Assembly: GCA_043810925.1 (NCBI GenBank) | Contig: JBDRNT010000069.1 | Coordinates: 34,352 to 98,351 of the forward strand | DNA length: 64,000 nt | Direction of reading: 5' to 3' | Source of the DNA: Candidatus Eiseniibacteriota bacterium | Lineage (GTDB): Bacteria; Arandabacterota; Arandabacteria; Arandabacterales; Arandabacteraceae | Shown: piece after piece, positions 35,231 through 62,600 of the stretch | How positions within the stretch are numbered: the first letter of the stretch is position 1 | Layout of the letters: every line of letters begins with the position of its first letter | The notes under the pieces: model-generated | Database searches by the model: none | Seen by the model: only the letters and a program-made list of their open reading frames with translations | Told to the model about the DNA's origin: nothing | Program-made: the position numbers and the translations under genes

Positions 35231-35436
35231 CCAATCGGTAACCGTTCCAATGTGAGAACCCTGGCACCACTATAGTGCAATACACATACCAGTCTCCGGT
35301 GTGCAAAACCTTGCCCCAAACTGGTATGAATTCCCCAAAATGCCACAAAGGACTGAGAGCATTCGCTGGTCGCATAACGCCGGCAATGCAATTGTGGATT
35401 GCAACTTGCAGAACGTGTTGCAGAGTGCAACGGCTC

Positions 35437-35817: not shown

Positions 35818-35913
35818 CTAAACCCCATCATCTTCCTTATCGTCATCCGGTGCGCTATGGTTTACATCTTGTTGAAAAAAAGAGAGAATTCCTACGGGGC
35901 TTAAAACAAAGGC

Positions 35914-36987: not shown

Positions 36988-37059
36988 GACACCACCCCCG
37001 ACCCTTCCCCAACATCATGTCGCATCATGCTCCTCCATCCGGTGTCGATACCGGCGTTT

Positions 37060-38249: not shown

Positions 38250-38401
38250 AGCGTAGCCAGCCTACACCCGACTTCGAAATGGTGTCAAGCCAATACTTGT
38301 TGGTGCCGGACGCTTCGCGCCGCCGGCATCGGCTGTAGATGCAACGGGCAGTCCGTCCGCAAAACGAACCTGCCGCCGGACCTACCGTTGATCCGCAGCC
38401 G

Positions 38402-41037: not shown

Positions 41038-41346
41038 ATTGCGCCCCTCCCCCCCTACTCCTACCACAATAATTCCGGTGACACCATACCTAATTGTAGC
41101 GTCATCGCTCCCGCGGCGACGGCCTTTCGGTTTTTCGTACCGTCGGGGTTCCAGCCCCGACGTCATCATTATTGCGCACCACCCCCGTCCATGATACAAT
41201 CCTCTTAGGGGTAGTTGATGATGGGCTTCAAACTGAGCTGCAAGCACCTGGCTTTCCTACTCGTGGGGATCTGTGCGGCCTGCTTGCCCCCCGGAAACCT
41301 CAGAGAAACCGTCAGGCAATAATCAAGTATGGTGTCACCGAAATTA

Positions 41347-43292: not shown

Positions 43293-43455
43293 GGCTGCCT
43301 CCTGTGCTGCGCTGATGCTGTCATTTTATCCCGGGCGAACCATGCATCGCGGCCGCCGTGAGATGTTCCTCGACGGGCCCCGGGCATCGTGCCCCGGACA
43401 GGAATAAACGGCTATTCCTAGATGTCCCGATCCTACTAAATCGGCCGTTCCAGGC

Positions 43456-44724: not shown

Positions 44725-44728
44725 TTCC

Positions 44729-46384: not shown

Positions 46385-46392
46385 TGGGAAAC

Positions 46393-47808: not shown

Positions 47809-49509
47809 TTAGAAGCGTCTGACCAATCCGAGATGCAGTTTCGCGTCCGACCAGGTGTCGTTTCTGCCCAGGGCTATCTCAAGACGTATGATACCCGTCC
47901 GTGACCCCGCCATGAAGCCAAGACCATAGCCGAAGGGACCTGATCGTATCGAGTCGAACGAGTAGCCGCCACCGTCCAGTGCGGCCCCGTCAAAGAAGCA
48001 GTATACCCGCGAATACTCGCCGAGAAGACGTCTCAGTTCAAGAGTGACGGTGATCGCCCTCTCCACTGTGAACCACTCCTCGGGATAGCCTCTCAGCGTC
48101 CGCATACCACCCATTCTTACCAGATGCGCCTGCGGTATCTCTCCCCGACTTGTAAATACTCCCTCGAACCGGCCTCTGATACCCAGTGCTGTCCTCACCC
48201 CGACCGCCGTGAGATGCTCACCCTCAAGCAACAGCAATGAGATCGTCCGGTCAAGGGATGAGTCGTCCTCGAACTCGAGTGCCGCAACCTCCTGTCTCAG
48301 CTTGACGAATTGTCCGGAGAGCGGATTCAAGGGCCGGTCCCTTCCCTCGTACCTGAGATCGAATGACAGACCGCGCTCGATGAAGTTGCCCTCACCACCC
48401 ACAAGGCTCCGGTCCTTGGTCGAACCCAGAAAGGCGCCCATGCCCAACTCGAGCCTGGGCTCGCCCCTGAAAGTCACCCCAAGCCAGACCTTCCTTCGTG
48501 CGTAGGATGTGTCTATAACATCCGATGAAAGCTCGCATTCCAGGGCAAATGGCTTCGAGAGGATGCGGGGCTCTCTGTAGGCTACACCCCAGCTCAGCCT
48601 CCCGCTGCCCGGTTTCATCCACAGCACCTTGAGTCTCCGGAGTGTGCCGCCCAGGCTCCGAAACTCGAGATCCAACGAGCCGACGAACTTGCTCTCTTTT
48701 CCGGATGGGGAGTAGGCAGCCAGACCTTCGAAGAGACTTGTTCTTGCCTCGACTACATCTATGGTCACGGTCAGCGTTGTGTCCATGCTGTCAAACGTGA
48801 GCACCGGCTCGGACACGTTTTCGAAAATACCCAGGTCCATCAGACGCTGTCTCACGCCTTCGATCTTCTTCCCTTGATAGGGTTCCCCCTCGGAAAGACC
48901 GCTTTCCGCCAGGGCGGCGCTCCGTTTGGTTTTCGTCATTCCCCTGAATACGACGTGACCCACATCAGCCTGCGGTCCGGCCGCAACATGGAGCCGAACC
49001 TCGACCCTTCCATCCCCCACAGAGACCATCTCCGGCCGGACTGTACTCAGGGGGTAGCCGCGAAGATCGTAGAAGGCAAGTACTCGACCTATGCCCTTCT
49101 CAAGCGCCAGCTGCGAAAACGGCCTGCCTGTCTGACCGGCGAACATCTTTTCTAGAACGGATGCCTCCCCGGCGGGCACACCGCTGATTCCGACCGACTC
49201 AAGGACGCTCGGCCGGCCTTCCGAGATCGCTATCTCTATGGCCTCATCGGGCGGGGCGGCCCGCTCACACCTGACTTCAACATCAAGGTAGCCGCGTTCC
49301 CAGTAATGCGCCGCCACCTCGTGGCAGATCGAATCCACACAAACCGAGTCGGACCGAGCACAGGCGATCTTGCCTATCCACTCAAGAATCGCGTCGTCCG
49401 ATAGATCGGAGTTGCCGCTTATGTTGAAGTCAGCCGGGGCCGCGGTTCCGACCATGACGATCACAGCGGCCAGAAAGGCGAGTGTGCAGGGTAGCCTCAT
49501 ACCGCCCAC
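47809..49509 (-). CDS. Omp85-family outer-membrane transporter (TamA/TpsB-like; POTRA domains plus a beta-barrel).
   Basis: Signal peptide, POTRA-like segments, and a C-terminal bacterial surface-antigen barrel ending ...LGLVRRF. Confidence 0.65.
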   Translation of the reverse strand: MGGMRLPCTLAFLAAVIVMVGTAAPADFNISGNSDLSDDAILEWIGKIACARSDSVCVDSICHEVAAHYWERGYLDVEVRCERAAPPDEAIEIAISEGRPSVLESVGISGVPAGEASVLEKMFAGQTGRPFSQLALEKGIGRVLAFYDLRGYPLSTVRPEMVSVGDGRVEVRLHVAAGPQADVGHVVFRGMTKTKRSAALAESGLSEGEPYQGKKIEGVRQRLMDLGIFENVSEPVLTFDSMDTTLTVTIDVVEARTSLFEGLAAYSPSGKESKFVGSLDLEFRSLGGTLRRLKVLWMKPGSGRLSWGVAYREPRILSKPFALECELSSDVIDTSYARRKVWLGVTFRGEPRLELGMGAFLGSTKDRSLVGGEGNFIERGLSFDLRYEGRDRPLNPLSGQFVKLRQEVAALEFEDDSSLDRTISLLLLEGEHLTAVGVRTALGIRGRFEGVFTSRGEIPQAHLVRMGGMRTLRGYPEEWFTVERAITVTLELRRLLGEYSRVYCFFDGAALDGGGYSFDSIRSGPFGYGLGFMAGSRTGIIRLEIALGRNDTWSDAKLHLGLVRRF

Positions 49510-52500
49510 CTAGAACGTGGCACTCAAAGAGGCCTTGACATTGTGGATCGTCGGGATTCCGCTCGTTTTGCGTCCGGTGTATTCAAAGGAAACCGACGTG
49601 TACCTGCCGTGGCGGAGATTGACCCTCGAATTCCAGGTGAACGAATCCCGCACCGGGTAGAGGGTCGCACTGGAGTATTCCGAACGGATGACCCTCCTGA
49701 GACTGCAGCCCGCATCACAGCGAAGGGCCCCGCTGAAGACGGTGATACCGGGGGAGGCGTTGACCTGCATAAAGGCTGATGTGGGTTCGGACCGCTCCTC
49801 ATTGAGTAGTTCCAGCCGCACTTGACTCCGCACGGCCGACACGATATTCCGGTCAAGACTGAGATTGGTGCTCCAGGTGTCCCTCGTCGGTTCAACACTG
49901 CCGGACGTCATATCTATTGTCGATCTCGTCGCCGTCAACCTGCCGGCCAGGGTGACCCTCATCTTCTTAAAGGCGCTGCTCAGCAGCCGGGTCTGTAACT
50001 CCGTCGTCGTCTTGCTCTCTTTCCTCTCGATACACCTGTTGTCGCGAAACCTCGAACCCTTTGCGTTAAGTGTAAGCGTAAGACCTTTCCCGCGCCGGAA
50101 GACCAGCTCCTCGCTGACCGTCATCCTCCCGAAGACCATCTCGTCACTCCGAAGCAAGTGGGCGGGGTAAAGAAATGCAATCCGTTCCAATTCCTGTGTC
50201 GAACTCTCTCCCTCGATGTCGATCCCGGTCCTTGCCGAGACAGCTCTATCCAGCAGGACCTTACCCCTTCTGCCCAGTTCGAGCACCAGGTCCGCCTTGA
50301 CCCTTGTGACAGGCTCTTTCCCCTTCTCAGACCTCGACATCACGTACCCACCCGCACCCGGGACGTAGTTGCCGAGACTGTCATAGTCGCCGCCTCCGCT
50401 CACCTGTACCAGTTCGGCGTCATAGACAGTCGTGAGCGCATTGGACAATCTGTAGTCGATTGACATGGAGCTGACCGCCAGGACATCCCGGAGATCGAAG
50501 TGGAAGTCACCGCTGGTGATCCGTTGTCCGCCTGCGGCCGTCTCCCGGGTATACTCTATCCTGCGCTGTGTTACTCCTCCTCTTATCAGGAGTCTTCTCT
50601 GCCGCGCCGTCTCAAACTCCAGCCTCCCCTCGACCTCGGATGAGTATTTGTCCCACCCGGCCCCCCTGTCCCTGTCCTCGGAGCCCGCGGAAAAAGCGAG
50701 CGAGACCTGCCCTCCGGTCCCGGACAGTTCCACTTGCGAGGAGTAATCCGTCCGCCGGGTGGATGTACTGTCGACGAGCTTCGACTTCGTCTCATGGTTG
50801 CGGCCCAGCGTAAGCTGCAGGAACTTGACCGGTATCCTGACGGCGATCCCGTTCCTGTCGATACCCTTCTCACTTGCGACCGACGACATCCGGGCGGTCT
50901 GTGAACTTGCGGTAAGCCCGAGACGCCTGTCTCCCAGTTCGAGCCCGGCCTTCCGCCTGAGCGACCGGCCCGAACTCGTTTCCATCGTGCCGATTTCAAA
51001 CGACGATGCAACCATATCATTCAGCTTATAGTCGAGACCGATCTCGTTCGCGTCCTCAAAACCGTCCTCTGCATCCTGCGCCCAGACCTCCAGGAAGTCC
51101 GGTCTTCTGAGTCTGTCAAACCCGATGTAGGTCTTCCCCACAGACCGTTTCTTCGCGCTCAGGCCGAGTGAGCCCACACTCCGTCCCCCAAGATCCGGAA
51201 GGTCCGATCTGCCCTGGACGGCCACGGTATAGGCCCTCCCCTCCTCTTCCTCCCAGGTTCCCGCCTCGGTCTTCGTATGTCCCTTTGACTGCGCCACCTC
51301 CGACGTCAACTCAAGCCACTCAGCCGGCCGGGCCGACGCACCCACATGAAAGACCCTGGCGCCAAGAGGCCGGCCAGCACGCACCTTGTCCAGGTATGCA
51401 CCGGTACCGGTATAGACGTAGACATAGACCGCCCATATCTCGGAGTAGATGTAGCTGTAGGTTCCCTCCCCCTCACCGACGAGTGTGAAGGTGACGTCGT
51501 AATCACCAAGACCTTCACCGACATATTCGTAGTAAGCAACCGTGTCGCTTTCGATGCGGATGTAGGAGCCGCGACCCATCCCGGCAAACCTACCGCCATC
51601 GACCCACTCGCGGGCGCCGTCGGTTCCGCTCGCAAGCAGTTCAGCCCCGGCACCTGCTTGCTCCTCAGGCTGGTTCGCACCGGTCTCGCTTACGAAGTTG
51701 ACCGCGACGGACGCCCGGTCTCCGATATCAAGACTCGACCGGCCGAAGTAGAACTGCCTGTTGCCGTCACGATCGGGGGACTCGTAGTCCACCACGATTC
51801 GTGCACCGTCTCTTACCAGATGTCTGGGGTTAAAGCAGATTTCTCCCGATACGTAGTCGATCGTGTAGTCTGCGTTGTCCCCACGCTTCAGCGGTTTGCC
51901 GTCGAGCCAGACGGACTCACTCCCCCTGACTATGTCTGTCTTCTCGCCATCCGCACGCTGGACAACATAGGGGCCCGTTATGCCCTCTCTGCCTCTGATC
52001 ACCACGGACTCGTAAGCGCTTCTTGAAGTGGCCCCGGACAGAGCCACACCCTTTGAACCATGTGAAGCATCCGCAAAAAAGCCGGTCATGCTTCTCCTGA
52101 ACCGGAGCAACTCCCCCGGAGATTCGTCTATTTCGAGGTCGCCGACCCTGGCATAGGCCCCGGAGGAGCGGACCTCCATGAAGACCCTGTCGAGATCTCT
52201 GAGTTTGCTGGTCGAGGTGCTACGGCTCAGCGACATGTCCTTGTCGGTCAGCACACCTTTGACATCAACCCCCTCACCTATCTTCCCGCCGATCGAGAGA
52301 TTCAGTGACTGGTTCATGCTGAAGTCGTTGAGCGTTCCGGTCTCCACGCTTACGGTCTTGGAACCGGACGCCCTGAGGTCATAACCCTTTTCCTTCTTTG
52401 CCGGCCGGATCTCCGCCCGCCGCGCGCCGAGACCGGGACCCGGAGCTTCATCGATTACCCTCAGGCTGTAGTCGGTCTTGAGCGGAAACGGGAAAACGGA

Positions 52501-52860
52501 GTACTTGATACGAACACATTCCTCAAGCGTGAGGCTGTCCGGGATAAGGACGATGCCCCGGGCATAATCCATCCGGTAGTCGGTTCCCCTTACCAGCATC
52601 CTAGCACCTGTCAATACGGTGTCGCTCGAGGCAATAATCAACCGGCGCGACAGATGGATCGCACCCGCACCCAGATCATCACCGCAGCGCACTTCCTCAC
52701 GCTGACAGGATACGCTGACTCCCTCAGCGCGGATCCCCCCGGCAGAGGCCGAAAGCGCCACGGCAAGCACCACCCCGAGAACACTACTGCGTGGATGTCT
52801 CAATCCTGAATACCTCGATCGACATACTTCCGGGATCGGCCACACAGACGACACCGTCAT
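49510..52860 (-). CDS. Very large (about 1,100 aa) beta-rich envelope protein ending in Phe; TamB/AsmA-like or a giant OM barrel. Function unknown.
   Basis: The long ORF (up to 52944) is strongly beta-strand-biased with alternating hydrophobic residues and ends in an OMP-like ...SLSATF. The start is uncertain (ATG at 52860, or GTG near 52773 just before the hydrophobic segment VLGVVLAVALSASAGG). It abuts the Omp85 gene with no spacer. Confidence 0.4.
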   Translation of the reverse strand: MTVSSVWPIPEVCRSRYSGLRHPRSSVLGVVLAVALSASAGGIRAEGVSVSCQREEVRCGDDLGAGAIHLSRRLIIASSDTVLTGARMLVRGTDYRMDYARGIVLIPDSLTLEECVRIKYSVFPFPLKTDYSLRVIDEAPGPGLGARRAEIRPAKKEKGYDLRASGSKTVSVETGTLNDFSMNQSLNLSIGGKIGEGVDVKGVLTDKDMSLSRSTSTSKLRDLDRVFMEVRSSGAYARVGDLEIDESPGELLRFRRSMTGFFADASHGSKGVALSGATSRSAYESVVIRGREGITGPYVVQRADGEKTDIVRGSESVWLDGKPLKRGDNADYTIDYVSGEICFNPRHLVRDGARIVVDYESPDRDGNRQFYFGRSSLDIGDRASVAVNFVSETGANQPEEQAGAGAELLASGTDGAREWVDGGRFAGMGRGSYIRIESDTVAYYEYVGEGLGDYDVTFTLVGEGEGTYSYIYSEIWAVYVYVYTGTGAYLDKVRAGRPLGARVFHVGASARPAEWLELTSEVAQSKGHTKTEAGTWEEEEGRAYTVAVQGRSDLPDLGGRSVGSLGLSAKKRSVGKTYIGFDRLRRPDFLEVWAQDAEDGFEDANEIGLDYKLNDMVASSFEIGTMETSSGRSLRRKAGLELGDRRLGLTASSQTARMSSVASEKGIDRNGIAVRIPVKFLQLTLGRNHETKSKLVDSTSTRRTDYSSQVELSGTGGQVSLAFSAGSEDRDRGAGWDKYSSEVEGRLEFETARQRRLLIRGGVTQRRIEYTRETAAGGQRITSGDFHFDLRDVLAVSSMSIDYRLSNALTTVYDAELVQVSGGGDYDSLGNYVPGAGGYVMSRSEKGKEPVTRVKADLVLELGRRGKVLLDRAVSARTGIDIEGESSTQELERIAFLYPAHLLRSDEMVFGRMTVSEELVFRRGKGLTLTLNAKGSRFRDNRCIERKESKTTTELQTRLLSSAFKKMRVTLAGRLTATRSTIDMTSGSVEPTRDTWSTNLSLDRNIVSAVRSQVRLELLNEERSEPTSAFMQVNASPGITVFSGALRCDAGCSLRRVIRSEYSSATLYPVRDSFTWNSRVNLRHGRYTSVSFEYTGRKTSGIPTIHNVKASLSATF

Positions 52861-53707
52861 CCCGGCAAGCGATGAATGCGGGCATCTCGAGCAAGCCCTC
52901 ACCGAATGAGCTGATGAACCCGCCGTCGGCAGAGAACACGGCAATCACGGCGCGCTCTGAATCCGATACCAGCACGTACCGGTCAAGATATGACGCGAGC
53001 CCGAACGGGCTCTGGAAATCGAAACCGACGAGCGCTTTGCGGGGTTTTCCAAAGGGGCTCAGCATCAGCACCTGCTCGGAGAATGCCTCGGTCACAAACA
53101 CGTTTCCGAGTTTCCCGGTAAGGCAATCCACCGGGTATGTACCACCATCACCGCTTGAGACCACAGCCTCAATCGGCTCGCTATCCCCCGATAGATCCAC
53201 AATGCGGATCGTACCCGCAATGCCCATGGCAGCGTAGATCTGCTCCGGCTTCCCCAGACCGAGCCCCGTAAGACCTTCCCCGACCTCCCTTGCCGACACA
53301 AACTCCCCCCAGCGGTCATAGACCAGGATCGATCCGGCGGTCTTCTCAGAAACGTAAACGCCCGCAGCGTTACCGGTCTCGATGTCTATCAGCTGGCAGT
53401 CACTGAACTCATCCGGACATCGCGCAAAGAGAGTGATACCATCAAGCGAATCCGGTAGCACAAAGATCCTCGAGTTATCCGAATCAATCACATAGAGTTC
53501 GCCGAACAATCCGAAGTCCAGGCCGAGTGGGGCGAACGCAAAACCGCTTCCGGACTCCTCGCATGGAATGGACTTCAGGTGTCGTGTCGAGATCTCACTG
53601 GATCCGCCGCCGGCGGGCTCCGAGCATGAAGCGAGGCCGGCAGCCCCGATACACGCCACCGCTGCCAGCAGTGATACACGTCTCATTATCTGTAGAGGTA
53701 ACATCAA
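52784..53707 (-). CDS. NHL-repeat (six-bladed beta-propeller) lipoprotein.
   Basis: Lipobox LASCS after the signal peptide. Repeated ...GxVxVxDxxNxRIxV-type blades. Confidence 0.6.
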   Translation of the reverse strand: MMLPLQIMRRVSLLAAVACIGAAGLASCSEPAGGGSSEISTRHLKSIPCEESGSGFAFAPLGLDFGLFGELYVIDSDNSRIFVLPDSLDGITLFARCPDEFSDCQLIDIETGNAAGVYVSEKTAGSILVYDRWGEFVSAREVGEGLTGLGLGKPEQIYAAMGIAGTIRIVDLSGDSEPIEAVVSSGDGGTYPVDCLTGKLGNVFVTEAFSEQVLMLSPFGKPRKALVGFDFQSPFGLASYLDRYVLVSDSERAVIAVFSADGGFISSFGEGLLEMPAFIACRDDGVVCVADPGSMSIEVFRIETSTQ

Positions 53708-54390
53708 AATGATGTGGAAAGGTAGAACCTGTAACTGTCCTGCGCCCTCTTTTCAACCCTCAAACTGGGATATGAGGACCGCTCGCCACGGTCTGCGAGT
53801 CTGAAGGTAAGATAGATGTCTATCATGCTGACCACCCGGTTTAAGACGGCGAACCCCGTGGTCAATACGGCGTGTCTGTACGATCCGCGGCTCAGGGTAC
53901 GCGTTTTTGCGAACTCGTCCCGCTTCTCCGCACTCTCCCACTCCCACGCGGAGGTCCCGAAATAACCATTCGCGTCGAAATAGGCCAGCTGATCCTCTTT
54001 GTCATCCGGGTACAGATAACGTGCTTCACGCATTACGTCTATATTGTAATCCTCATTGGAGCCGTAGTAGGCCAGGGCGATTGCGTAGTCATCGGCGATA
54101 TCACCCCCGACGCCCGCAAACAGCCTTGCCATTTCCTTGTACTTGTCCTTCCTCATGCCACCCTGGATCCGGTAACCGGCAAACGCTGTCCAGACCCCTG
54201 CTTCGGCTACATACATCATCCGCGCTCTGCCATGGTTACCGAGATAGTGCTGGCCCGCACCGGGCAAAACGAGAGAATACAACAGAGCCTTACGGAGTGA
54301 CCTGTCCCCACCGCCATCATCACAGTAGCCGGCTGCCACACACCCCAGCAGGGTTACCGCAACCACACAGAACTTAAGTGTATATCTCAT
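53704..54390 (-). CDS. Secreted hypothetical protein, paralog A. Shares a conserved S.VLPG.GQ.Y.G motif with the next gene.
   Basis: Signal peptide. Motifs LLYSLVLPGAGQHYLG and RVVSMIDIYL. C-terminal ...YLSTSF. Confidence 0.5.
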   Translation of the reverse strand: MRYTLKFCVVAVTLLGCVAAGYCDDGGGDRSLRKALLYSLVLPGAGQHYLGNHGRARMMYVAEAGVWTAFAGYRIQGGMRKDKYKEMARLFAGVGGDIADDYAIALAYYGSNEDYNIDVMREARYLYPDDKEDQLAYFDANGYFGTSAWEWESAEKRDEFAKTRTLSRGSYRHAVLTTGFAVLNRVVSMIDIYLTFRLADRGERSSYPSLRVEKRAQDSYRFYLSTSF

Positions 54391-54393
54391 GTA

Positions 54394-55311
54394 TCAGAAC
54401 CTCATCTTCAGACCGACTTTGACATTCGGGTTGCTGCCCAGCCTGGCCTTGAAGGTCAGACGCGGGTTCGTGCCGACACCGGCAAGATCCCGGTTCCTGA
54501 ACTTGGCCATGATCGCCGCGTCGACCATGCTGACAACTCTGCCTATTACCATCACCCATGCATAGCGATCGGCCTTGCCATAGAAATCATCCGCTTCCGC
54601 CCGCATGCCCTGATACTGTGTCCTGTTAGAAGAAGTACTGGGAATTCCCGCGGGCAACGTACCGTAGGGATCCCAGTCCACCCAGAGCTCCTCGGGGAAC
54701 TGCACATCACCTGTACTCCAGTCATCCCACCCAAACACATATCTGTCCTCTGCACCTATCTGTTCGTAGAAGGCCCCACTGCCTTGATCTGACAGCGGGA
54801 ACACCACATGTATCTCCTCCCAGCATCTCAAACTGTCGTAGATCCCGGGATCGGTACAAAAGCCGAAGTCACCGTAGCCACTGTGGACTGCGATCGTGTC
54901 GCGCACGTACCCGGTGAAGCGCTGCGTGCTGTAGTGGTCTTCGGCCCAGGCTTCGTACTCGCCCTTCTTGTCGTCCCCCTTGCCTGTGTTGTTGAAATAT
55001 CTCCACATGGAAAAGAGATCAGCAGCAGCCATCACTCCTCCGCTCGCATAGCCCCTTCTCCCACCCACATAGGCCTGTCCAAGCCCCGGGAGAACCGCGG
55101 ACAGCAGCATGGCTTTTGCCACCGACTTGCGGTGCAGCACGACACTCCCGCCGACCTCTACAGGCGCATCCTGTCCACCTTCATCGGTGATATTGCCGAT
55201 ACTGGCCCTGGCCTTTACATCAAGGTCATCATCCATGCCGCAGACATTGGAGAGAGTTACAAACGTCAGCAGGACGAACCCCGCTACCAAGATGCTGAAC
55301 CGGTGCGCCAT
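54394..55311 (-). CDS. Secreted hypothetical protein, paralog B.
   Basis: Signal peptide. Motifs MLLSAVLPGLGQAYVG and RVVSMVDAAI. C-terminal ...GLKMRF. Confidence 0.5.
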   Translation of the reverse strand: MAHRFSILVAGFVLLTFVTLSNVCGMDDDLDVKARASIGNITDEGGQDAPVEVGGSVVLHRKSVAKAMLLSAVLPGLGQAYVGGRRGYASGGVMAAADLFSMWRYFNNTGKGDDKKGEYEAWAEDHYSTQRFTGYVRDTIAVHSGYGDFGFCTDPGIYDSLRCWEEIHVVFPLSDQGSGAFYEQIGAEDRYVFGWDDWSTGDVQFPEELWVDWDPYGTLPAGIPSTSSNRTQYQGMRAEADDFYGKADRYAWVMVIGRVVSMVDAAIMAKFRNRDLAGVGTNPRLTFKARLGSNPNVKVGLKMRF

Positions 55312-55321
55312 GCCCTACCTC

Positions 55322-58300
55322 CTACCTCTTTACGGCCAATTTGAAGAACTCACTGGTCCGGGCACCGTTGCCCTCAAGACTCAGCCTGCAGACATAAAGC
55401 CCGCTTCCCAGGTCGCTGATATCCACGTCCGGGACTGTCACCTTCGGTACCTGCGATTCGGCATTGTATCTTACGGTCTTGACTATAGTACCTGTTACAT
55501 CGAAGACCTCTATCGTCACCGCACCACCGGTGTCGGTCTCAAACCGGAAACTGACTTCATTCCCGCCGCCCTCGCTGCTGTACGCAACACCGGCCGGGTT
55601 GGGAAATGCGTGGAAACTGCCTTTGACAAGCAACCTGCTGCCCGGCTGCGGTGCATCGGGCATCTGATCGATTGGATAGACACAGTTCCTGCTTGAGTCG
55701 AAATACGCCGTCTTCCATGGGGCCGGATTCGTATCGGTCTGTCCCGGATGCAAAAATGCATAGACTGAACCGTCTCCCCCACCGGTCACGAGCTCAAGCC
55801 TGCCGTCCCCGTCGAGATCGCCCAACGCTGCCGCCGAGCATCCTCCCCCGAGTGTTACCGGAAAACCGCTCATCCTCTTACCGCCCGCTTCCCACGCGGT
55901 GATACACTCAAACAGCGTGCCCTGTATTACATCTATTGCCCCATCACCATCGAGATCGCTCGCAATCGGCGATGGAACCGATATCGTCGTGTCCGCCGGA
56001 TAGTAGTCCTCGTCCCACTCGGGCAGGGCGCAGCCATAGCGTGAATTAGGCCACCCGTCGGCAGGGCTACCGCTTCGAAGCACCACCCAGCTCTTGTGCT
56101 CGTCATCGTTCAGGATCATCTCCAGGTAGCCGTCCCCGTTGACGTCTGCGATAGCCGGAGGGGAGACCACACCCCTGCATACTCTCCTGCCCCACCCCGG
56201 TAACTCCCGTCCCTCACCATCCACGACCCACATCCATCCGTTGTCGCCCACGACTATGATCTCATATGCAGGCTCCCCGGCCCTGTCAAGATCTGCGGCC
56301 GCCAGATAGACATGTCCGGGATCCAGGTCACAGGAGAACGGGTAGGTGGCAATTACCCGGCGGGCTGAGTAGGAATACACTACGATCTCACCCGTTCTGT
56401 AGTATACAATCTCCGCGCCGATCGAGTCGGGAAGGAGATCACATACAACCGGCCGGCTGAATCCACCGTCATCACCTCCGTCCAGGCGAAGGTCTATCAC
56501 CAGGTTGCCGGGCAGACCGCCGAGGACATACAACGCAGAGTCTGTTGCGACGATTGCCTCATCGTGCCCGTCCCCACCAAGATCGTATGCAACCACCACA
56601 CCGTTCACGTGACCGTTGACCGTGTAAAACGCTCCACGCCAGTCGGCACCGAAGAAATAGGGCGAGCCACCGGCCGTGAAGGCATAGAGATGATCGGTCT
56701 CGTCACTGAACACCACCTCATCGACCCCGTCACCGTCAAGATCCGCTGCGACCAGTTCCGTGGGATGCGACCCATGAGGCCTTTTCGGCCAACCCGGCAA
56801 GCTCACCGGACTGCCGGCTTCGTCGAGCTCGTAGGCGTCTATTCGAGATCGCTCCCAGACCACCCCCGCAGTGTCCCAGTATGCCCGCTTAAGAGCAGAC
56901 CTTATCTCGGCCCTGCCGTTACCATCCAGGTCCGAAACGAGAAGTGAAGGCACACCAAAACGCATAGAGTCTCCCAAGGCGTACGGGAAGCCGGGTCTAC
57001 TCCAACTATACGAAACACGGAGATCCATGGAAAGACCGGAATCGCTTATCTGGTCGATGACCACATGTGAATGACAGCCGGTATTACTGCGTGTGTTGGG
57101 ATAGGTGTCATCGGCCATCCTGTCGTTATTACCGCGTCTGAAGGGGTCGTCGGGTCCGCCGAGAAAATAGAACGAATTGAAGTCACCCAGATCCGGGATA
57201 CCGTCCGCCTCTTTGAGCGTCAGACCGCGCCGCTCGGGAAACGCATTGATGAGATCAAATGGACCGAGCCAGTCGATCCAGGCAGCGTCCGCGTGCCAGA
57301 TCAGAAGTCCGCTCCCCGGAAGCACGAAGTCGTACTCGTAGTTCAGGTTATCGTTTCCGTCAGCCGGCCCGATTATCACGCCCGTTGAATCTTCGCTTGG
57401 ATCGGTGAGCACGTAGGCCGAGTCGTTTCCATCAAGGTCGGCCTGCCTGTTCTCTATGAGGTAGCACTCGTTTGAGTTTATCGGTACTGCAAGCACGTCC
57501 GTGTTGGGAAACTCACCCTGGAGCTCGGTGGCATCAAGAGTGAACGATCCCCCGCCGACAACCGTATCGGCAACGGCCCAGCCGAGCTCGATCTTGCTCC
57601 ATGCGGATATCGAAGCCGGCAGGATGCCGGATACATAGTATGCCTCCCCGGTTCGCTCATCCTCCACCACCACCCCTACACCCGAGCCGAAGTCCATCAG
57701 GTCCCAGTAGCCGACAACACTCATGCCCGAGTAGGTGTCATACAGATCGGGCAGCCCCAGCTGATGGCCCACCTCATGCGCGAGCACACCGTTGAGGCCG
57801 TTAAAGAAGTCATCCTGGCTGGTCGTCTCCGGGACGACGCTACCGTCGACGATGAAGTGGGTACCGCCTTCCACCTCGATGCTGTCGCCGATCGATATGA
57901 AGAATGAGGGAATGTCATAAGGCGTATCGCCGTATATGTCGTTCTGCCAGTCCGAGCCGGCATGGAAGATCACCACGGCATCGAACTCGCGGAAGTCAAG
58001 ATCAGGGTCCTGGTCGGCAACGGTGATCGCATCACGGAAGAAAAGATCGAGACCGTCAAGCGACCACGTGTAGACCCCGCCACTGGGATTATAGTCGCCG
58101 ATATCGGGAAGTACGTAGGCGGCGTCGTTTGCGAGTGGAAAGACCTCCGACTCGATCTTAAGACTTCCATAGGACATGGCGTCGTAGTAGTGGGCAAGTG
58201 CTTCCATGTGCTTGGAGAAGTACTTGCGGTCATGAGGTGACGGGTCGATCGGAATCTCTTCCCGTTTGTCTCTGAGATCGAATCTTCCGCCGGCACCGGT

Positions 58301-58600
58301 GATCCCCGAAGGGTCCGGGACGCGTGCGAACTCCACCCGGATCGCACAGATCCGAAGCACATCCTGTATCTCCTGGGCCGCCGTCATGGGGCCCTTCCTC
58401 TGCCTTGAGGTCAGGAGTTTCCTGGTTGACGGCATATCCTTAATCGGGGCGTTTATCCACCGCTTGAGCCGCTTGTCCATCAAACTCTGGAACTCGGCGT
58501 TCTCACCGGGCGGTCTGACCTTGACGACCCCGGCACACACCAGTTCCCCAGCTGCCACCACCCACACCAGAATCATTATCAATGTCAGAGTTGTCTTCAC
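55322..58600 (-). CDS. Secreted multi-domain protein: M6 (InhA-like) metalloprotease, FG-GAP/VCBS beta-propeller repeats and a T9SS C-terminal sorting domain.
   Basis: Signal peptide. HEXXH motif VLAHEVGHQLGLPDLYD. Multiple DLDGDG.DE/FG-GAP-like repeats. C-terminal AFPNPAG...VFDVTGTIV...GLYVCRL, a CTD-like tail. Confidence 0.7.
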   Translation of the reverse strand: MKTTLTLIMILVWVVAAGELVCAGVVKVRPPGENAEFQSLMDKRLKRWINAPIKDMPSTRKLLTSRQRKGPMTAAQEIQDVLRICAIRVEFARVPDPSGITGAGGRFDLRDKREEIPIDPSPHDRKYFSKHMEALAHYYDAMSYGSLKIESEVFPLANDAAYVLPDIGDYNPSGGVYTWSLDGLDLFFRDAITVADQDPDLDFREFDAVVIFHAGSDWQNDIYGDTPYDIPSFFISIGDSIEVEGGTHFIVDGSVVPETTSQDDFFNGLNGVLAHEVGHQLGLPDLYDTYSGMSVVGYWDLMDFGSGVGVVVEDERTGEAYYVSGILPASISAWSKIELGWAVADTVVGGGSFTLDATELQGEFPNTDVLAVPINSNECYLIENRQADLDGNDSAYVLTDPSEDSTGVIIGPADGNDNLNYEYDFVLPGSGLLIWHADAAWIDWLGPFDLINAFPERRGLTLKEADGIPDLGDFNSFYFLGGPDDPFRRGNNDRMADDTYPNTRSNTGCHSHVVIDQISDSGLSMDLRVSYSWSRPGFPYALGDSMRFGVPSLLVSDLDGNGRAEIRSALKRAYWDTAGVVWERSRIDAYELDEAGSPVSLPGWPKRPHGSHPTELVAADLDGDGVDEVVFSDETDHLYAFTAGGSPYFFGADWRGAFYTVNGHVNGVVVAYDLGGDGHDEAIVATDSALYVLGGLPGNLVIDLRLDGGDDGGFSRPVVCDLLPDSIGAEIVYYRTGEIVVYSYSARRVIATYPFSCDLDPGHVYLAAADLDRAGEPAYEIIVVGDNGWMWVVDGEGRELPGWGRRVCRGVVSPPAIADVNGDGYLEMILNDDEHKSWVVLRSGSPADGWPNSRYGCALPEWDEDYYPADTTISVPSPIASDLDGDGAIDVIQGTLFECITAWEAGGKRMSGFPVTLGGGCSAAALGDLDGDGRLELVTGGGDGSVYAFLHPGQTDTNPAPWKTAYFDSSRNCVYPIDQMPDAPQPGSRLLVKGSFHAFPNPAGVAYSSEGGGNEVSFRFETDTGGAVTIEVFDVTGTIVKTVRYNAESQVPKVTVPDVDISDLGSGLYVCRLSLEGNGARTSEFFKLAVKR

Positions 58601-58612
58601 AAAGAACGCTCC

Positions 58613-59626
58613 TTAGAGTCTGTAGTTTAAAGAGAACTTGTTCTCCCTTCCCAGCTCCTCGGCTTTGGGTACGCTCGCGTAATCGAAGTCCAGCCCGCCG
58701 CCGACGGGCACGCTGATCCCGAAACCGTAAGTGAAGCCTTCGATCTTGCCATCGTGGTCATAGATATAACCCAACCGGGGCGCCACGAAACCCGCTATCA
58801 TCAGTTCCGCCCCACCGTTTAAGGTGGCATCTCTTCTGATCGCGCTCGTCTTGAATCCATCGAAAATCTCATTCAGTCCGATCAGGGTCTTGGCAAACTC
58901 CGTCGATATCAACAGCGAATAGCCTTCACCATAGAACGGCTTGAAGGCTATACCGGTCCGCAGGGTCCTGGGCAGCGGCGCCGACTCGTCCTTGCTTACG
59001 AAACTCATGTCGGGACCGAGATTCTGAAGCGCAGCACCATAGGACAGCCGGTCATTGATTCTCCCGAGGAACCCGAAGTCCGCCGCGAAACTCCAGCCCG
59101 CACCCTCGACACCACCCGTCTCAACCGTCGCAGGGGCAAGGTACACGCGGGATATCTTGAGGCCCACGCCAAACGCATTCCTGCTGTTTAGCTTGAAGGC
59201 ATAGTATCCGCCGAATGCGAATTCATAGCTAGTGTGCTCCTGCACCGGGATGCCTTCCCTGGTCGTCTCCCACCACTTACCGTAAGTAAGGTAGATCGCA
59301 CTGAATCCGAGCGTTCCGATCTCAGGGATGGCGTGGGACACATTGATCGATTCGAAATAGACATCGTCCGCGAGCATAGGGATCAGCTGACTGTGCGTCA
59401 TCGACATACGGGTGCCGTCCAAGAACCCGAGCCCACCCGGGTTCCAGTACATAGCAGTCGCATCATCGGCAATCGCCACGAATGACTGTCCCAATCCCCA
59501 AGCACGTGCCGACGGTGAGATTATCAGTGATGGGGCAGCTGCCTCCCCAACCGCCAGCACTTCAGAAGAAGCAAGCAGAGCCAACATCGACACCAGAAAC
59601 AACACCCTACGCATCATTCTGTCCAA
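58613..59626 (-). CDS. PorV/PorQ-like outer-membrane protein (FadL-like beta-barrel associated with T9SS).
   Basis: Signal peptide, then ARAWGLGQSFVAIADDATAMYWNPGGLGF, the N-terminal motif I associate with PorV/PorQ/PorP-type T9SS barrels. Positioned immediately downstream of the PorU-like gene, as in porU-porV operons. Confidence 0.55.
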   Translation of the reverse strand: MDRMMRRVLFLVSMLALLASSEVLAVGEAAAPSLIISPSARAWGLGQSFVAIADDATAMYWNPGGLGFLDGTRMSMTHSQLIPMLADDVYFESINVSHAIPEIGTLGFSAIYLTYGKWWETTREGIPVQEHTSYEFAFGGYYAFKLNSRNAFGVGLKISRVYLAPATVETGGVEGAGWSFAADFGFLGRINDRLSYGAALQNLGPDMSFVSKDESAPLPRTLRTGIAFKPFYGEGYSLLISTEFAKTLIGLNEIFDGFKTSAIRRDATLNGGAELMIAGFVAPRLGYIYDHDGKIEGFTYGFGISVPVGGGLDFDYASVPKAEELGRENKFSLNYRL

Positions 59627-59632
59627 CCTCCA

Positions 59633-62600
59633 TCATCGTATCAGTACAAGCACTATTGTGTCCCGGGTGCTGAACCCGGGCTCAGACGGAGCAGTAGCCT
59701 CTACCACGGCCAGATAGGCTCCGTTTGCGACGGCATCACCCGCCATATCGGTGCCGTCCCATCTTAGCTGGAAGTGAGAATGCGGACCCGAAACGATACC
59801 TGCCCATATCTCCCTTCCCGACACCGTGTATATCTTCGCGCTGATTTCAACCTCAATGCTGTTATCGTTCTCGTATTCCCAGATGATATAGCAGTCCTCG
59901 TGTGCAGGATTGGGGTACGCATAGACCGTATTGGCCGCACCGCTCACCGGAGAGCCGACATAGATGCTGTAGTCATCCGTGGTCAGGTTGTTGAGATTGT
60001 CAAATGCGGAGACACTCAACTTGTGTTCACCCACTGCGAGCGGCGGAACGACGAACGCGGCCTCAGACACTGTGAAATCGCCATCCACAGCGTGAACACT
60101 CTCCGCAAGGTTCACCCTCTCGACATCGTCGTATGCTATCGACACAGAGGGAATGAATTCCGACTTACCCTTGATCGCCACACCACTTTCATCCGAGAGC
60201 CGGATGTCCACTCTTGCACCTACGGACAGGGTATCAACAGGCGCTACGGTCTCACCGTTATAGATAAGCTCTATCTCGGGACCTTCATCATCATCTGAGA
60301 AACCCTCTCCGCTCACCACCAGGCTGTCAAGCATGCCCGAAGCGGAGACAATCCCGTCCGTGGCAAAACACTTCACCGTAGCCGCACTACCCTGACGGGC
60401 ACTGGCGGACATGAAGAACCTCGAATCGAACACGCCGCTCTGAACGTCCGACCTGCCCCTGAACACCTCGAGACCGGGAAGAGCGTAATCGAAAAAGACC
60501 AGGGGATTGCAGCTCTGGTAACCGGTCGTATCCTCGGCCTCACGGACACAGATGTTCGCCTGGACACCGGACCACCCTACGATGCCGCCCTGGTCATGGA
60601 TGCTCGCCTGGAATTCATAAACGCTTTTTCTTGAGAGCGTTTCAGGCACCGTAGTCTCAAAAACGACATCAAGAAGCGGTGTAGCCAGCTCCAGCATAGG
60701 ATCGCCGAAGAGCGCATAGACTTCATTGTTCATCCAGTATGTCCTCCGGTCCGACGCGGACGCAATTGTCAGCCACTTCGCCAGGGCTACCGCATCTGCG
60801 ATCGGAACAGTGGGGTCCTTATCTCCGGTGGGAAATAACTGCTGGATAACGTTGAGATTCATTATCTGATTCGGCAGCGGAAAGGCCAGGTGTGTAGATG
60901 CAAGTGATCCGATGGTCCCGCCTCCGGGACGCCGGAGCAGGTTCTCTGCAACCGAAGATGACTGGGGCTCGTCGAATTTGCTGACATTACAGCTTGCCGC
61001 AATCAGGAAGGTCTCCCGGCGGCCCGTCTCGACGAGATCGACCGAGGCGGGGTTAAAGACCTCTTCCTGGGTCCACCTGAACTGGTCCCCGTGACCCACG
61101 AAATTGGTGATCAGGGCACCCCGGTTCAGATGTTTGACAAAATCGGCCCTTGCTTTGGGTTTAACCCCGCCGGTATCCATCGGGTATTCGGTCAGATATA
61201 TCTTTACATGGTCAAACACACGCGGGTAGGCCTCGTCACTCAACTCCTCGACGTTCCCGACATGCGGGCTATTCTGCTCACAGCCTTGGTTCACGTGGTC
61301 ATCGTCGGCTACGAGGATCACCCTGTTCTGCCACAGCCCACACTCGGGATTCGATGCGTAATTCAATTGCTTCGCAACCAGGAGCTCCGCCTCCTCCGGG
61401 GATGCGGCAGGAAGCCGTGAGATCCCGACCGTCGGGTAGTCGGCAATGCTGTCGTTGCGGACCGGCGCAAGGTAGGCAAACCAGTCATCGGTGTTGTACG
61501 GGTTTCCAAACGGCGGCAGATACCTGCGTTCATACGATGGAACATAATTCGGATAGGGGGCATTCTGTATGTAACTCTTGTAATCCCAGGTGGCATCGCC
61601 GAGAAGCAGTACCCATGACAGCGAACCGCTCTCATACCTCCACCTTAAGAAATCCCTTATCGCGGTCACGTCGGGAACACCCCAGCCGAATTCATCGAAG
61701 ATCTGCTCAGTGGTCACCACTTCACCATCATGGAAATCAGAGATCGTTGTCGCGGCATCAAGCAGGTCTTCATGCGTGACCACACAATAGGGTGCACCGG
61801 GTCCATTGCGGATGTCGGCGATCGCGGCCTGACTCATTGCGGCAGGCTTTCGGAGCGCACCTGGTGCGACGACCGCATAGCGCCGTGGCATCCCCTTGCT
61901 GATGGTATCACGCACCGTGAACGCGTATGAAGTAAAGCCCTCGCCGGTCGTGTCCTCGGCGCCCAAGAGCTCCCGTATATCGAACTGGTCGGTCACATCG
62001 AAGACATAGACCGAAGGTGAAGTGAACCCGCCTATAGCATATTCCACAGTGCAGGTGGAATCCGGAGCGGGAAAGAAAATCCGGTTTCCCACAGCAGTGA
62101 ACTTCCTCCAGTAGTAAAACTCCAGCCACGCCACATAGAGCTGGTCGCAAACACTCTCTTCTTCATAAGGCGGAAGCAGGTCGGAGGGAGCTTCCATTCT
62201 CAGCGATTGGGTTTGCGTGGCCGTTAGCCGCGTGGTCTCTGCCCTGACGTCTACGACTCTGAGGTTCGACGATGAGGCCCGCCAGGTCGTATCCGCTATC
62301 GCCGGTCGACCGTTGAGCTCAAGGATCAGCCTGTAGAAAGCGTTTGCACACCCGCTGCCTGCCTCAAATGAGAACCAGTCGGCGATACGAGCTTTGACGA
62401 CCGCCTTCCTGTCGGTATCCGGGAACGGCGTATCCAGGGTGAAGAAGGTAGGACTGTCGATCCTGAGATGCCGCCAGTACCAGCCGTCATCCGCACGGAC
62501 ACCGAAGTTGACGAATACGTCCTTTTCCATGTGAACGCGTTCGTAAAACGACTCCGGCACGTAGGCAGAGCAGCCGTCGCATCCGGGCATCATGACAGTC

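Follow-up and report, generated by a model that had tools for sequence, protein, structure and literature searches.

A conserved pair of exported DUF5683-like proteins encoded within a type IX secretion gene block outside Bacteroidota

Knowledge of type IX secretion (T9SS) comes almost wholly from Bacteroidota, and homologs of PorU and PorV occur across the wider FCB group. The accessory parts PorZ, PorQ, PorD, SkpA, PorE and Plug were described in Bacteroidota, and the pair of proteins analysed here, termed A and B, occurs in other FCB phyla. Similar to these accessory parts, A and B are exported, share a gene block with PorU and PorV and are expected to work at the outer membrane or beneath it; differently, they have another fold, and no NCBIfam model matched A or B at E ≤ 0.1 in a library including models of PorZ, PorQ and PorW/SprE. 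In the translocon, PorD and SkpA are periplasmic oligomers (PMC8754138, PMC10994853). They were considered as equivalents of A and B and rejected, because nothing in the papers or in NCBIfam links A and B to them. TolC-type outer-membrane factors and Skp/prefoldin holdases offered architectural analogies. The former had no sequence similarity to A and B and differ in connectivity, the hairpin of A and B being C-terminal after both helices, and no evidence of a channel was found for A and B. The latter gave a generic helical match only, and unlike them A and B carry a globular domain at their tips and a β-signal-like C-terminus. NCBIfam also holds models for an M6-like inactivated metalloprotease (NF052323), a putative PorU2 (NF052324) and a putative PorV2 (NF052325), which, judging from their names and consecutive accession numbers, seem to form a cassette.

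The window, that is, the whole 64,000-nucleotide stretch analysed, carried gene A at 54394..55311 and gene B at 53704..54390, both on the minus strand with ATG starts. In the T9SS-linked, DUF5683-like pair, gene A (305 aa) was the A-type, which takes the first position, and gene B (228 aa) the B-type, which takes the second. A protein of an NCBI Candidatus Eisenbacteria MAG was 100% identical to A, and the B family comprised 117 clusters. The two genes were separated by 3 nt, A and the gene upstream of it by 10 nt, and the NHL gene downstream overlapped B by 4 nt. Since all of these genes lie on one strand with such short spacings, A, B and their neighbours are tightly packed and operon-like.

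Upstream of A, an M6-like metalloprotease of 1,092 aa with an FG-GAP β-propeller and a T9SS type A C-terminal sorting domain was encoded at 55322..58600 on the minus strand (Pfam Peptidase_M6, FG-GAP and Por_Secre_tail). Its sorting domain scored just below both cut-offs (22.0 against 23 bits for TIGR04183; 19.8 against 27 bits for Pfam), and its orthologs exceeded the TIGR04183 cut-off (41.8 bits at locus L004). Next on the minus strand were a PorV-family outer-membrane protein of 337 aa (58613..59626; NF033709, 182 bits against a cut-off of 90; Pfam PorV) and the T9SS sortase PorU, a C25 peptidase of 1,342 aa (59633..63661; NF033707, 526 bits against a cut-off of 420; Peptidase_C25, E 3e-73). 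The three cassette models matched the M6/FG-GAP protein, PorU and PorV weakly to moderately, all scores lying below the curated cut-offs; for NF052323, 272 bits were obtained with the window protease and up to 427 bits in Zixibacteria, against a cut-off of 600. Unlike NF052324, the PorU of this locus is canonical, and unlike the inactivated NF052323 type, the protease keeps HExxH, the HExxH...DLYD motif being intact in all full-length orthologs.

Downstream of B, also on the minus strand, an NHL-repeat protein of 307 aa with a lipoprotein-type signal (…GLASC; Pfam NHL) was encoded at 52784..53707, and an NHL gene held the same position in most full blocks. It was followed by an outer-membrane-type protein of about 1,100 aa ending in ...SLSATF (49510..52944; minus strand), which probably starts further downstream than the TTG listed for its 1,144-aa reading frame. 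This protein was weakly SprA-like: weak TIGR04189 (SprA) matches fell in the same model region in three phyla, and a profile search of the PDB found only SprA (E 0.43). The last gene (47809..49509; minus strand) encoded an Omp85-family protein of 566 aa with POTRA domains (Pfam POTRA and Omp85; TIGR03303 BamA match below cut-off) and was conserved at the block end. The first-pass annotation, which had placed the pair between T9SS-type cargo and outer-membrane protein genes, was thus borne out.

The synteny analysis named Eisenbacteria, Zixibacteria, Latescibacterota, Krumholzibacteriota, WOR-3, TA06 and Fibrobacteraceae. The colinear block of PorU, PorV, M6-like/FG-GAP protease, A, B, NHL lipoprotein, SprA-like outer-membrane protein and Omp85 recurred in all of these lineages except WOR-3, with one B-type gene in place of the pair in TA06. 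In gene-context look-ups, the M6/FG-GAP gene adjoined the family in 9/9 cases and the block from PorU/PorV to Omp85 was found in 7/9, six with the A/B pair and one single-copy. Among GTDB loci, which covered 20 kb each, the M6/FG-GAP homolog was upstream in 47 of the 49 testable, and the SprA-like gene was downstream in all 28 pair loci with enough flank. Differently, WOR-3-type loci carried a single B-type gene, with Omp85 and the SprA-like gene absent nearby and PorU and PorV absent within 10 kb; WOR-3, L005 and L006 showed only the protease and the single B-type gene, with or without a β-propeller protein, PorU/PorV not being adjacent. The proposed A/B heteromer and the partner link are therefore not universal. 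No A/B pair standing apart from T9SS genes was found among these loci, a finding that would have counted against an accessory role. The genomic association with core T9SS genes is conserved across lineages and the link of A and B to T9SS is strong; location and mechanism we infer. Of the accessory or adaptor role proposed earlier for the pair, the accessory part is strongly supported by this synteny, and a role as adaptor, anchor or channel may be supposed. Because A and B appear as paired exported envelope proteins inside a T9SS operon in several phyla, the family being spread over at least seven, they are good candidates for undescribed parts of the T9SS machine.

A and B had been taken for tandem paralogs with signal peptides, and the reading frames, signals and comparisons all agreed with this. 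Pairwise BLASTP aligned them at E 1e-5 with 25% identity over about 230 residues, and profile-profile comparison of the two families by hhalign gave a probability of 99.4% and E 4.5e-21 over 202 columns, that is, the whole mature proteins. The likeness is far above chance, and A and B are true paralogs. As read from the sequence, both begin with a basic n-region, continue with a hydrophobic stretch and have small residues at -3/-1 (A ...LSNVCG/MDDD; B ...CVAA/GYCDD), and Ala-x-Ala-type cleavage sites recurred in the homolog alignments of both, which fits N-terminal Sec signal peptides in A and B. Export is further favoured by the strongly acidic tip and by the Cys pair that is invariant in the Eisenbacteria A family. 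The conserved blocks and terminal Phe quoted in the first-pass annotation were all present in both proteins: a first shared block reading ALLYSLVLPGAGQHYLG and AMLLSAVLPGLGQAYVG in the two proteins, a second one reading NRVVSMIDIYL in B and GRVVSMVDAAI in A, and the ends ...STSF in B and ...KMRF in A.

The two types were also separable across phyla. First-position proteins had median scores of 50-83 bits against other first-position proteins and 33-51 bits against second-position ones, and second-position proteins had 87-142 bits against their own type and 35-48 bits against the other. First-position proteins of other phyla matched A better than second-position ones did, and single-copy lineages carried the B-type. 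By these scores, the A-type and B-type are distinct ancient orthologous groups, fixed in the order A then B in several FCB-group phyla.

At E ≤ 1e-3, the wider family comprised 4,104 representative clusters, matched over the full length. Pfam PF18935 (DUF5683) matched A at 30.3 bits, above the cut-off of 26.7, over profile positions 3-23 only, and B at 21.4 bits, below that cut-off, over positions 4-42; the alignment thus covered positions 3-42 of the 151-position model and not most of it. Of 52 wider relatives, 31 matched PF18935 at E ≤ 0.01, and hhalign of the family profile with a canonical DUF5683 member aligned 44 columns at 80% probability. On this profile evidence, A and B are long divergent relatives of DUF5683, with the match limited to the N-terminal motif region. 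A and B share with DUF5683 a signal peptide followed by a KS..A.L.S..LPGxGQxY helix and a next helix with a conserved acidic residue. By eye, a canonical DUF5683 member of 185 aa (L005, 17132-17689) showed the plan of A and B, with a hydrophobic last helix (...FDAY) and a terminal hairpin (...GIGVAFYKSF). Unlike DUF5683 as recorded, A and B carry a helical insert of 90-150 residues between the helices and form a conserved pair bound to a T9SS operon. Canonical DUF5683 genes of Bacteroidota presumably adjoin parAB; the canonical member at L005 did not adjoin parB. The PGxGQxY motif, which we take to resemble TM2-type inner-membrane families, gave weak DUF6677 matches in 7 of the 52 members.

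The earlier impression of a faint DUF5683 likeness without a characterised family was confirmed: the NCBIfam and PDB searches with A and B were empty, and the DUF5683 relation was partial, with B below the cut-off. The PDB search found no relative of A or B by sequence or by fold, and no member of the family with a solved structure. A match to a well-characterised unrelated family, which would have spoken against an accessory role, was searched for and none was found. In the literature search, the only paper naming DUF5683 was an unrelated nematode GPCR study and none found described the A/B family; searches on Eisenbacteria and T9SS, on PorU2/PorV2/M6i and on T9SS in candidate phyla found nothing relevant.

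The family alignments showed conserved residues in three regions of A and B. A consisted of a signal peptide (~1-25), a variable linker to ~60, a helical core (62-276) and a C-terminal hairpin (282-305); B consisted of a signal peptide (~1-20), helices at 32-50, 53-92 and 154-203, a helical tip (100-141) and a β-hairpin (209-225). The first region was the KS...S..LPGxGQxY block of A (residues 62-82, KSVAKAMLLSAVLPGLGQAYV; 55066..55128, minus strand), which forms a short helix, a Pro-Gly kink and the start of a long helix and was the sole stretch of A matched by PF18935; K62, S63, S71, A72, P75, G76, L77, G78 and Y81 were invariant in the A family. The equivalent KS/PGxGQxY block of B (residues 30-51, RSLRKALLYSLVLPGAGQHYLG; 54238..54303, minus strand) had A35, S39, P43, G44 and G46 invariant in the B family. 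The second region, also common to A and B, was the hydrophobic end of the second long helix of A (residues 251-271, AWVMVIGRVVSMVDAAIMAKF; 54499..54561, minus strand) with conserved R258, S261 and D264, where G257, R258, V259, S261 and D264 were invariant in the A family. Its counterpart was the NRxxSxxD helix end of B (residues 174-196, AVLTTGFAVLNRVVSMIDIYLTF; 53803..53871, minus strand), with G179, N184 and R185 invariant and S188 and D191 nearly invariant in the B family; the NRxxSxxD motif was present in most of the distant relatives. The third region was the amphipathic β-hairpin at the end of A (residues 282-305, NPRLTFKARLGSNPNVKVGLKMRF; 54397..54468, minus strand), with R304 and F305 invariant, and the C-terminal β-hairpin of B with Phe as last residue (residues 207-228, PSLRVEKRAQDSYRFYLSTSF; 53707..53772, minus strand). 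Across 52 diverse, multi-lineage members, S39, P43, G44 and W151 were invariant, and G46, E63, W67, W149 and R164 were kept in at least 90%.

AF2 monomer models gave A and B the same fold: a short helix leads into a long helical hairpin, which carries a small helical tip, and the chain closes with an amphipathic β-hairpin. The mean pLDDT of A was 72.7 and reached about 90 for residues 100-260; that of B was 83.7, with strands at 209-215 and 219-225. The confidence of the hairpin was low (pLDDT 30-50 in A, where the strands were short, and 48-69 in B). The last residue was F/Y in 40/40 A-type and F in 36/40 B-type proteins, and the chain stopped exactly there. In A-type proteins, the hydrophobic fractions at C-terminal positions 0, -2, -4 and -6 were 1.0, 0.82, 1.0 and 0.95, with polar residues at -1, -3 and -7; the end of A, KVGLKMRF, agreed with the outer-membrane β-signal pattern. 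The B-type was weaker at -2 (hydrophobic 0.42), where Arg or Lys, unusual for a β-signal, was often found. The last strand thus resembles an outer-membrane β-signal. The suggestion that the terminal Phe marks outer-membrane localisation was strengthened by the family-wide aromatic end and the β-signal-like strand; against it, the barrel-or-not check proposed at the time, run on AF2 monomers, showed one two-stranded hairpin and no closed transmembrane β-barrel. A barrel would require A and B to oligomerise or to add to a partner barrel.

The helices were also compared with inner-membrane segments. On the additive Hessa scale, which is simplified and lacks position weighting, the best 19-mers of all three helices had dG values of +5 to +9 kcal/mol, the medians for A-type, B-type and single-copy proteins lying between +5.5 and +8.8 kcal/mol; for the 251-271 helix end of A, the best 19-residue windows had KD 1.73 and an additive dG of about +5 kcal/mol. 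The helices were thus too polar for stand-alone inner-membrane segments inserted by Sec. The loop after PGxGQxY held about two conserved K/R, the tail had a net charge of +1 to +2 and the tip or middle domain one of -9 to -14, a distribution compatible with the positive-inside rule in a weak manner.

The best reading of these data is that A and B are two subunit types of an ancient exported envelope pair, which would form a long T9SS-linked branch of the DUF5683 superfamily. We give a probability of roughly 0.45 to an A/B heteromer that sits at the outer membrane via its hairpins, extends a periplasmic stalk and serves the T9SS module. After Sec export and signal-peptide cleavage, A and B would fold in the periplasm. 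A three-helix neck carrying the conserved cluster of Glu/Asp, Asn-Arg, Ser and Asp would be built from the short helix of PGxGQxY and from both long helices where they come near the membrane, and below it a helical hairpin stalk of about 6-7 nm, if the predicted helices of 40-50 residues are straight, would bear the helical tip, which is small, acidic and rich in aromatic residues. In the last 20-25 residues, the chain would form the amphipathic β-hairpin with its β-signal-like final strand, which BamA or the operon's own Omp85 may put into the outer membrane. Since a lone hairpin cannot sit in the membrane, several A/B hairpins would have to join in a small hetero-oligomeric barrel or add to a partner barrel, for which the SprA-like protein, PorV and Omp85 are candidates. 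From beneath the outer membrane, the assembly may serve the T9SS translocation/attachment module as a structural subunit or an adaptor, most closely tied to the M6/FG-GAP protein, and might position this module or tether it to the cell wall or to partners in the periplasm. A bolder version, which we consider doubtful, holds that long DUF5683-like proteins are a new outer-membrane assembly class, in which mostly helical A and B would each donate one C-terminal hairpin to a small hetero-oligomeric barrel and extend a stalk of about 6-7 nm into the periplasm. The assembly would be an ancestral, hitherto overlooked core part of the T9SS outer-membrane module (PorU, PorV, M6/FG-GAP protease, half-size SprA-like translocon and dedicated Omp85) in FCB phyla outside Bacteroidota, the short canonical DUF5683 proteins being reduced versions of like build. 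A contribution of two strands to a barrel by a mainly helical protein has few precedents and weighs against the best reading, as do the low hairpin confidence, the Arg/Lys at -2 of the B-type, the DUF6677 matches, the WOR-3-type loci and the lack of conservation of the Cys pair outside Eisenbacteria.

The charge pattern also fits another topology, which we regard as rather unlikely, namely a three-pass inner-membrane protein. The pair would then connect the inner membrane with the outer-membrane module of T9SS, for example to signal, to transfer energy or to handle lipids. Once the signal peptide is removed, the helix of PGxGQxY would cross inward and leave the short basic loop on the cytoplasmic side, the first long helix would cross back at its start and place the acidic helical domain in the periplasm, and the end of the NRxxSxxD helix would cross inward again, with the basic C-terminal hairpin cytoplasmic and the conserved Glu/Asp, Arg and Asp as a polar network in the membrane. 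The basic residues after PGxGQxY and the slightly basic tail agree with such an arrangement and to that extent weigh against the outer-membrane heteromer. However, the unfavourable dG of all three segments with charged residues mid-segment argues against it, the tail charge is small, and an aromatic residue exactly at the end of a strictly alternating strand is left unexplained. Moreover, all other genes of the block encode outer-membrane, surface or lipoprotein components, plus Omp85.

A narrower role, unlikely in our estimation, would make the pair a partner of the M6/FG-GAP metalloprotease only, as anchor, inhibitor, maturation factor or substrate and not as a general T9SS component; its place in the PorU/PorV block would merely reflect the protease being T9SS cargo. 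The protease gene is indeed the one invariant neighbour and keeps its catalytic HExxH everywhere, and the reduced loci of WOR-3, L005 and L006 would be expected from such a partnership. But in most phyla the SprA-like and Omp85 genes accompany the pair as well, and the position of the protease directly after PorU/PorV suggests a machine component and not ordinary cargo; this role is also compatible with, not exclusive of, the outer-membrane heteromer. Less likely still is a hetero-oligomer that is soluble in the periplasm and built like Skp or prefoldin; SkpA of the extended translocon in Flavobacterium would be comparable. Its β-hairpins would pack as a small soluble β-barrel body, and its helical hairpins would hang from this body like tentacles and hold or position clients of T9SS, for example the M6/FG-GAP protein or the N-terminal end of the SprA-like protein.

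The block is a compact, highly conserved outer-membrane module of eight genes in at least six lineages other than Bacteroidota, and for two of its genes, A and B, no described function, structural relative or mention was found in the secretion literature searched. If A and B are a real part of the machine, a new component class would be added to T9SS and the large DUF5683 superfamily would gain its first functional context. The module also suggests a minimal or ancestral T9SS outer-membrane unit consisting of sortase, shuttle, M6 protease, a half-size SprA-like barrel and a dedicated Omp85. The block was found in Fibrobacteraceae genomes, and if the culturable Fibrobacter succinogenes carries it, these ideas would be testable at the bench.

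Three further features were considered as indicators and set aside. B was rejected as a lipoprotein (...LLGC), the Cys not being conserved in its homologs, and the tandem-fusion protein P0277 was discarded as an indicator of topology because its middle looks frameshifted. A disulfide was not decisive for localisation: the Cys152/Cys163 pair of A was not conserved across phyla outside Eisenbacteria, and was invariant within the Eisenbacteria A family, while WOR-3 members had a single conserved Cys without a partner.

Two adjacent genes on the minus strand of the window, A (54394-55311, 305 aa) and B (53704-54390, 228 aa), were confirmed as tandem paralogs encoding exported proteins; the ORF listing reproduced the coordinates of the first-pass annotation exactly, and its cautious reading as a whole held, the observation being real. 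A typical Sec signal could be read at the start of both sequences, both ended with Phe, and two blocks were common to them, ALLYSLVLPGAGQHYLG in A and AMLLSAVLPGLGQAYVG in B, and NRVVSMIDIYL in A and GRVVSMVDAAI in B. Pairwise BLASTP of A against B gave an E-value of 1e-5 with 25% identity over about 230 residues, and comparison of the A and B profiles, each made from 50 homologs, gave a probability of 99.4% and an E-value of 4.5e-21 with the whole mature length aligned. Judged by these sequence comparisons, the similarity is beyond chance. Entries of a Candidatus Eisenbacteria MAG in NCBI were 100% identical to A and to B. The start of A lay 10 nt from the end of the upstream gene, the gap between A and B was 3 nt, and the stop of B overlapped the start of the next gene (NHL) by 4 nt. 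This tight packing on one strand indicated that A, B and the flanking genes are operon-like.

The affiliation of the two proteins was evaluated with Pfam and NCBIfam models. PF18935 (DUF5683) matched A with 30.3 bits at model positions 3-23, over the cut-off of 26.7, and B with 21.4 bits at positions 4-42, under it; both matches were confined to the N-terminal motif region. None of the NCBIfam models matched A or B. The faint resemblance to DUF5683 suggested earlier was therefore borne out for the motif region, but the alignment was partial, B stayed under the cut-off, and neither protein had full-length membership in Pfam DUF5683 as defined. As DUF5683 is itself uncharacterised and only partly matched, the pair still could not be assigned to a characterised family. 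The combined A-type and B-type profile (first- and second-position members across lineages) was searched against 1.84 billion representative proteins, and 4,104 clusters were obtained at E ≤ 1e-3, 2,147 at ≤ 1e-10 and 255 at ≤ 1e-30; the best 150 of the 4,104 matches were nearly all near-full-length, to proteins of 200-350 aa. One relative from the protein library, the 522-aa “double” member P0277, had a middle part rich in Arg, Ser and Thr, as in out-of-frame translation, and is probably not a real tandem-domain protein but the product of an A-type and a B-type gene fused by a frameshift. In the alignment of 52 diverse members, S39, P43, G44 and W151 (B numbering) were invariant and G46, E63, W67, A88, W149 and R164 were kept in at least 90%, while most ended with an aromatic residue and had NRxxSxxD in the last helix. 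DUF5683 matched 31 of these members and DUF6677 matched 7.

The short canonical form was represented by a 185-aa DUF5683 protein (locus L005, 17132-17689, minus strand), whose contig also has a long B-type gene elsewhere, which showed that long and short forms coexist in one genome. Only the first 44 columns of the family profile aligned with it, and by eye its elements followed the same order as in the long family, including the terminal hairpin ...AFYKSF. The short gene lay near a large T9SS-sorted Big_5 protein. A and B are thus, in terms of sequence, long and divergent members of the DUF5683 superfamily, Pfam DUF5683 being among their closest known relatives through partial membership. No description of the family was found in the literature searched, where DUF5683 was mentioned in one unrelated paper only; T9SS structural and interactome papers name PorD, SkpA, PorW, Plug and others, and nothing with the features of A or B was found there.

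The pair was located within a block of minus-strand genes, in the order PorU (59633-63661, NF033707, 526 bits), a PorV-family protein (58613-59626, NF033709, 182 bits), an M6-like metalloprotease with an FG-GAP propeller and a T9SS sorting domain by Pfam and NCBIfam matches (55322-58600), A, B, an NHL lipoprotein (52784-53707, Pfam NHL), an outer-membrane-type protein of about 1,100 aa with weak SprA matches (49510-52944) and an Omp85 protein with POTRA domains (47809-49509, Pfam POTRA and Omp85). Downstream, 33527-47682 on the same strand held genes unrelated to the block, namely thiC (46393-47682), hutU (44729-46582), hutI (43456-44802) and genes for a TPR protein (42174-43292), a TonB-dependent receptor (38402-40516), a SagB-type dehydrogenase (37551-38249), mannose-1-phosphate guanylyltransferase (35914-36987) and the type IV pilus ATPase PilB (33527-35230).

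Contig contexts were looked up for nine relatives, and co-occurrence of the pair with PorU and PorV in other genomes was confirmed: the same block including the tandem pair was found in six of nine (Eisenbacteria and Zixibacteria were named there), in one the block had a lone family gene, and in two, from low-GC lineages, there was an M6/FG-GAP gene followed directly by one family gene and nothing else of the block. A scan of GTDB species genomes gave 59 loci, onto which all eight window proteins were mapped by tblastn; the organisms named were Eisenbacteria, Latescibacterota, Krumholzibacteriota, WOR-3, TA06 and Fibrobacteraceae. Among the 49 loci with 1.5 kb or more of sequence on the upstream side, 47 had the M6/FG-GAP gene there in the same orientation. 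Of the two exceptions, L059 was artefactual, its ORF having been called too long, and in L056 PorU and PorV were followed directly by the pair. The ~1,100-aa gene lay downstream in all 28 pair loci whose sequence extended 3 kb or more in that direction. In the reduced WOR-3-type order (L041, 4081-10654, plus strand, and eleven similar loci), the M6/FG-GAP gene was followed by a 902-aa beta-propeller-repeat protein, one B-type gene and housekeeping genes, and PorU, PorV, the SprA-like gene and Omp85 were absent within 10 kb. These results firmly showed a very strong, multi-phylum linkage of A and B to the T9SS operon, which was strongest for the M6/FG-GAP protein.

Two tandem family genes were present in 40 loci. 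First-position proteins scored median values of 50-83 bits against the first-position proteins of other loci and 33-51 against second-position ones; the corresponding values for second-position proteins were 87-142 bits against their own position and 35-48 against the first. Single-copy lineages had the B type. This indicated that the duplication is older than the split of these phyla and that the A-then-B order is fixed, which in turn points to a putative hetero-oligomer of A and B. The ancient paralogy and the large uncharacterised family are firmly supported by the sequence data, and the pair represents a T9SS-linked, expanded, paired branch of the DUF5683 superfamily.

AlphaFold2 was run on A and B with the family alignments, and mean pLDDT values of 72.7 (about 90 over residues 100-260) and 83.7 were obtained, respectively. 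In both models the signal peptide was followed by a short helix up to the PGxGQ kink and then by two long helices, the first of 40-50 residues and the return helix of about 50, with a small helical tip domain (bigger in A) between them; the chain closed with a low-confidence C-terminal beta-hairpin. The likeness to TolC was an architectural analogy only. The last strand alternated strictly, with A-type hydrophobic fractions of 1.0, 0.82, 1.0 and 0.95 at positions 0, -2, -4 and -6 and polar positions at -1, -3 and -7. The chain ended exactly with F or Y in 40/40 A-type proteins and with F in 36/40 B-type proteins. The sole clear B-type departure from the C-terminal Phe rule was one Eisenbacteria subclade (L001, L018 and L019), with the non-aromatic end ...YLYLNLP(L/I/M)(V/G)K.

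Given these features, we tentatively favour, with a probability of about 45%, periplasmic proteins held in the outer membrane by the C-terminal hairpin. The terminal KVGLKMRF of A fits the established beta-signal pattern of BAM substrates, the block has its own Omp85 gene, and the polarity of the three helices also speaks for this location. A lone beta-hairpin cannot sit in the membrane, so the hairpins would have to join a hetero-oligomeric barrel or add onto a partner barrel, and A and B would play an adaptor or structural role. The outer-membrane location proposed earlier from the terminal Phe thus agreed with the strand and C-terminus pattern, but AlphaFold2 gave one low-confidence hairpin; likewise, the proposed accessory role for the adjacent secretion genes agreed with the operon linkage across phyla, whereas we infer the anchoring, the heteromer and the adaptor or structural role. 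A three-pass inner-membrane protein is unlikely: the three helices were too polar for stand-alone inner-membrane segments (additive Hessa dG +5 to +9 kcal/mol), the tail charge was weak (+1 to +2) and the C-terminal aromatic rule would be left unexplained, although the DUF6677-type matches to the motif (7/52), the resemblance of PGxGQxY to TM2-type families, the basic loop after the motif with a very acidic middle domain, and the more hydrophobic helices of the canonical short member argue for it. Generic fold matches alone speak for a soluble Skp/prefoldin-like oligomer with the hairpins as body, which is quite improbable, the analogy to Skp/prefoldin being one of architecture only. The outer-membrane anchor overlaps with a further reading, in which the pair would serve the M6/FG-GAP protease only.

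The zinc-site motif HExxHxxG(L/A)(P/Y)DLYD was kept in every full-length M6/FG-GAP ortholog checked (about 45), and the nearest NCBIfam family, NF052323 (272-427 bits, under its cut-off), is named “inactivated” metalloprotease. The likeness to the NCBIfam M6i/PorU2/PorV2 families concerned parallel neighbours only, not A and B. The constant position of the M6/FG-GAP protein immediately behind PorU and PorV suggests that it is a machine component, perhaps with a PorZ-like role, and not ordinary cargo. The ~1,100-aa protein, which ended with ...SLSATF and was kept in every full block, matched TIGR04189 (SprA) in three phyla (24-38 bits, model positions 572-654), and when all PDB sequences were searched with its profile the sole match was SprA 6h3i (E 0.43); no similarity besides these weak SprA matches was found. 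This likeness is suggestive only, and the protein may be a half-size SprA-like translocon. Its true start is probably further downstream, as the ORF from the listed TTG shares 161 nt with the NHL gene. The Omp85/POTRA gene ended the block in nearly all phyla and scored well under the BamA and TamA equivalog cut-offs, which indicated a separate subfamily tied to the T9SS module. The NHL-repeat protein had a lipoprotein-type signal (...GLASC), and the recurring third partner at its position was a beta-propeller protein, either NHL or the 902-aa protein in WOR-3. Additionally, enlarged PorV proteins of 824-858 aa were found in Zixibacteria and another lineage (L004, 3066-5642, and L007, 3985-6459, both plus strand), in which roughly 500 additional residues, with a faint Reg_prop match, were fused to the PorV barrel.
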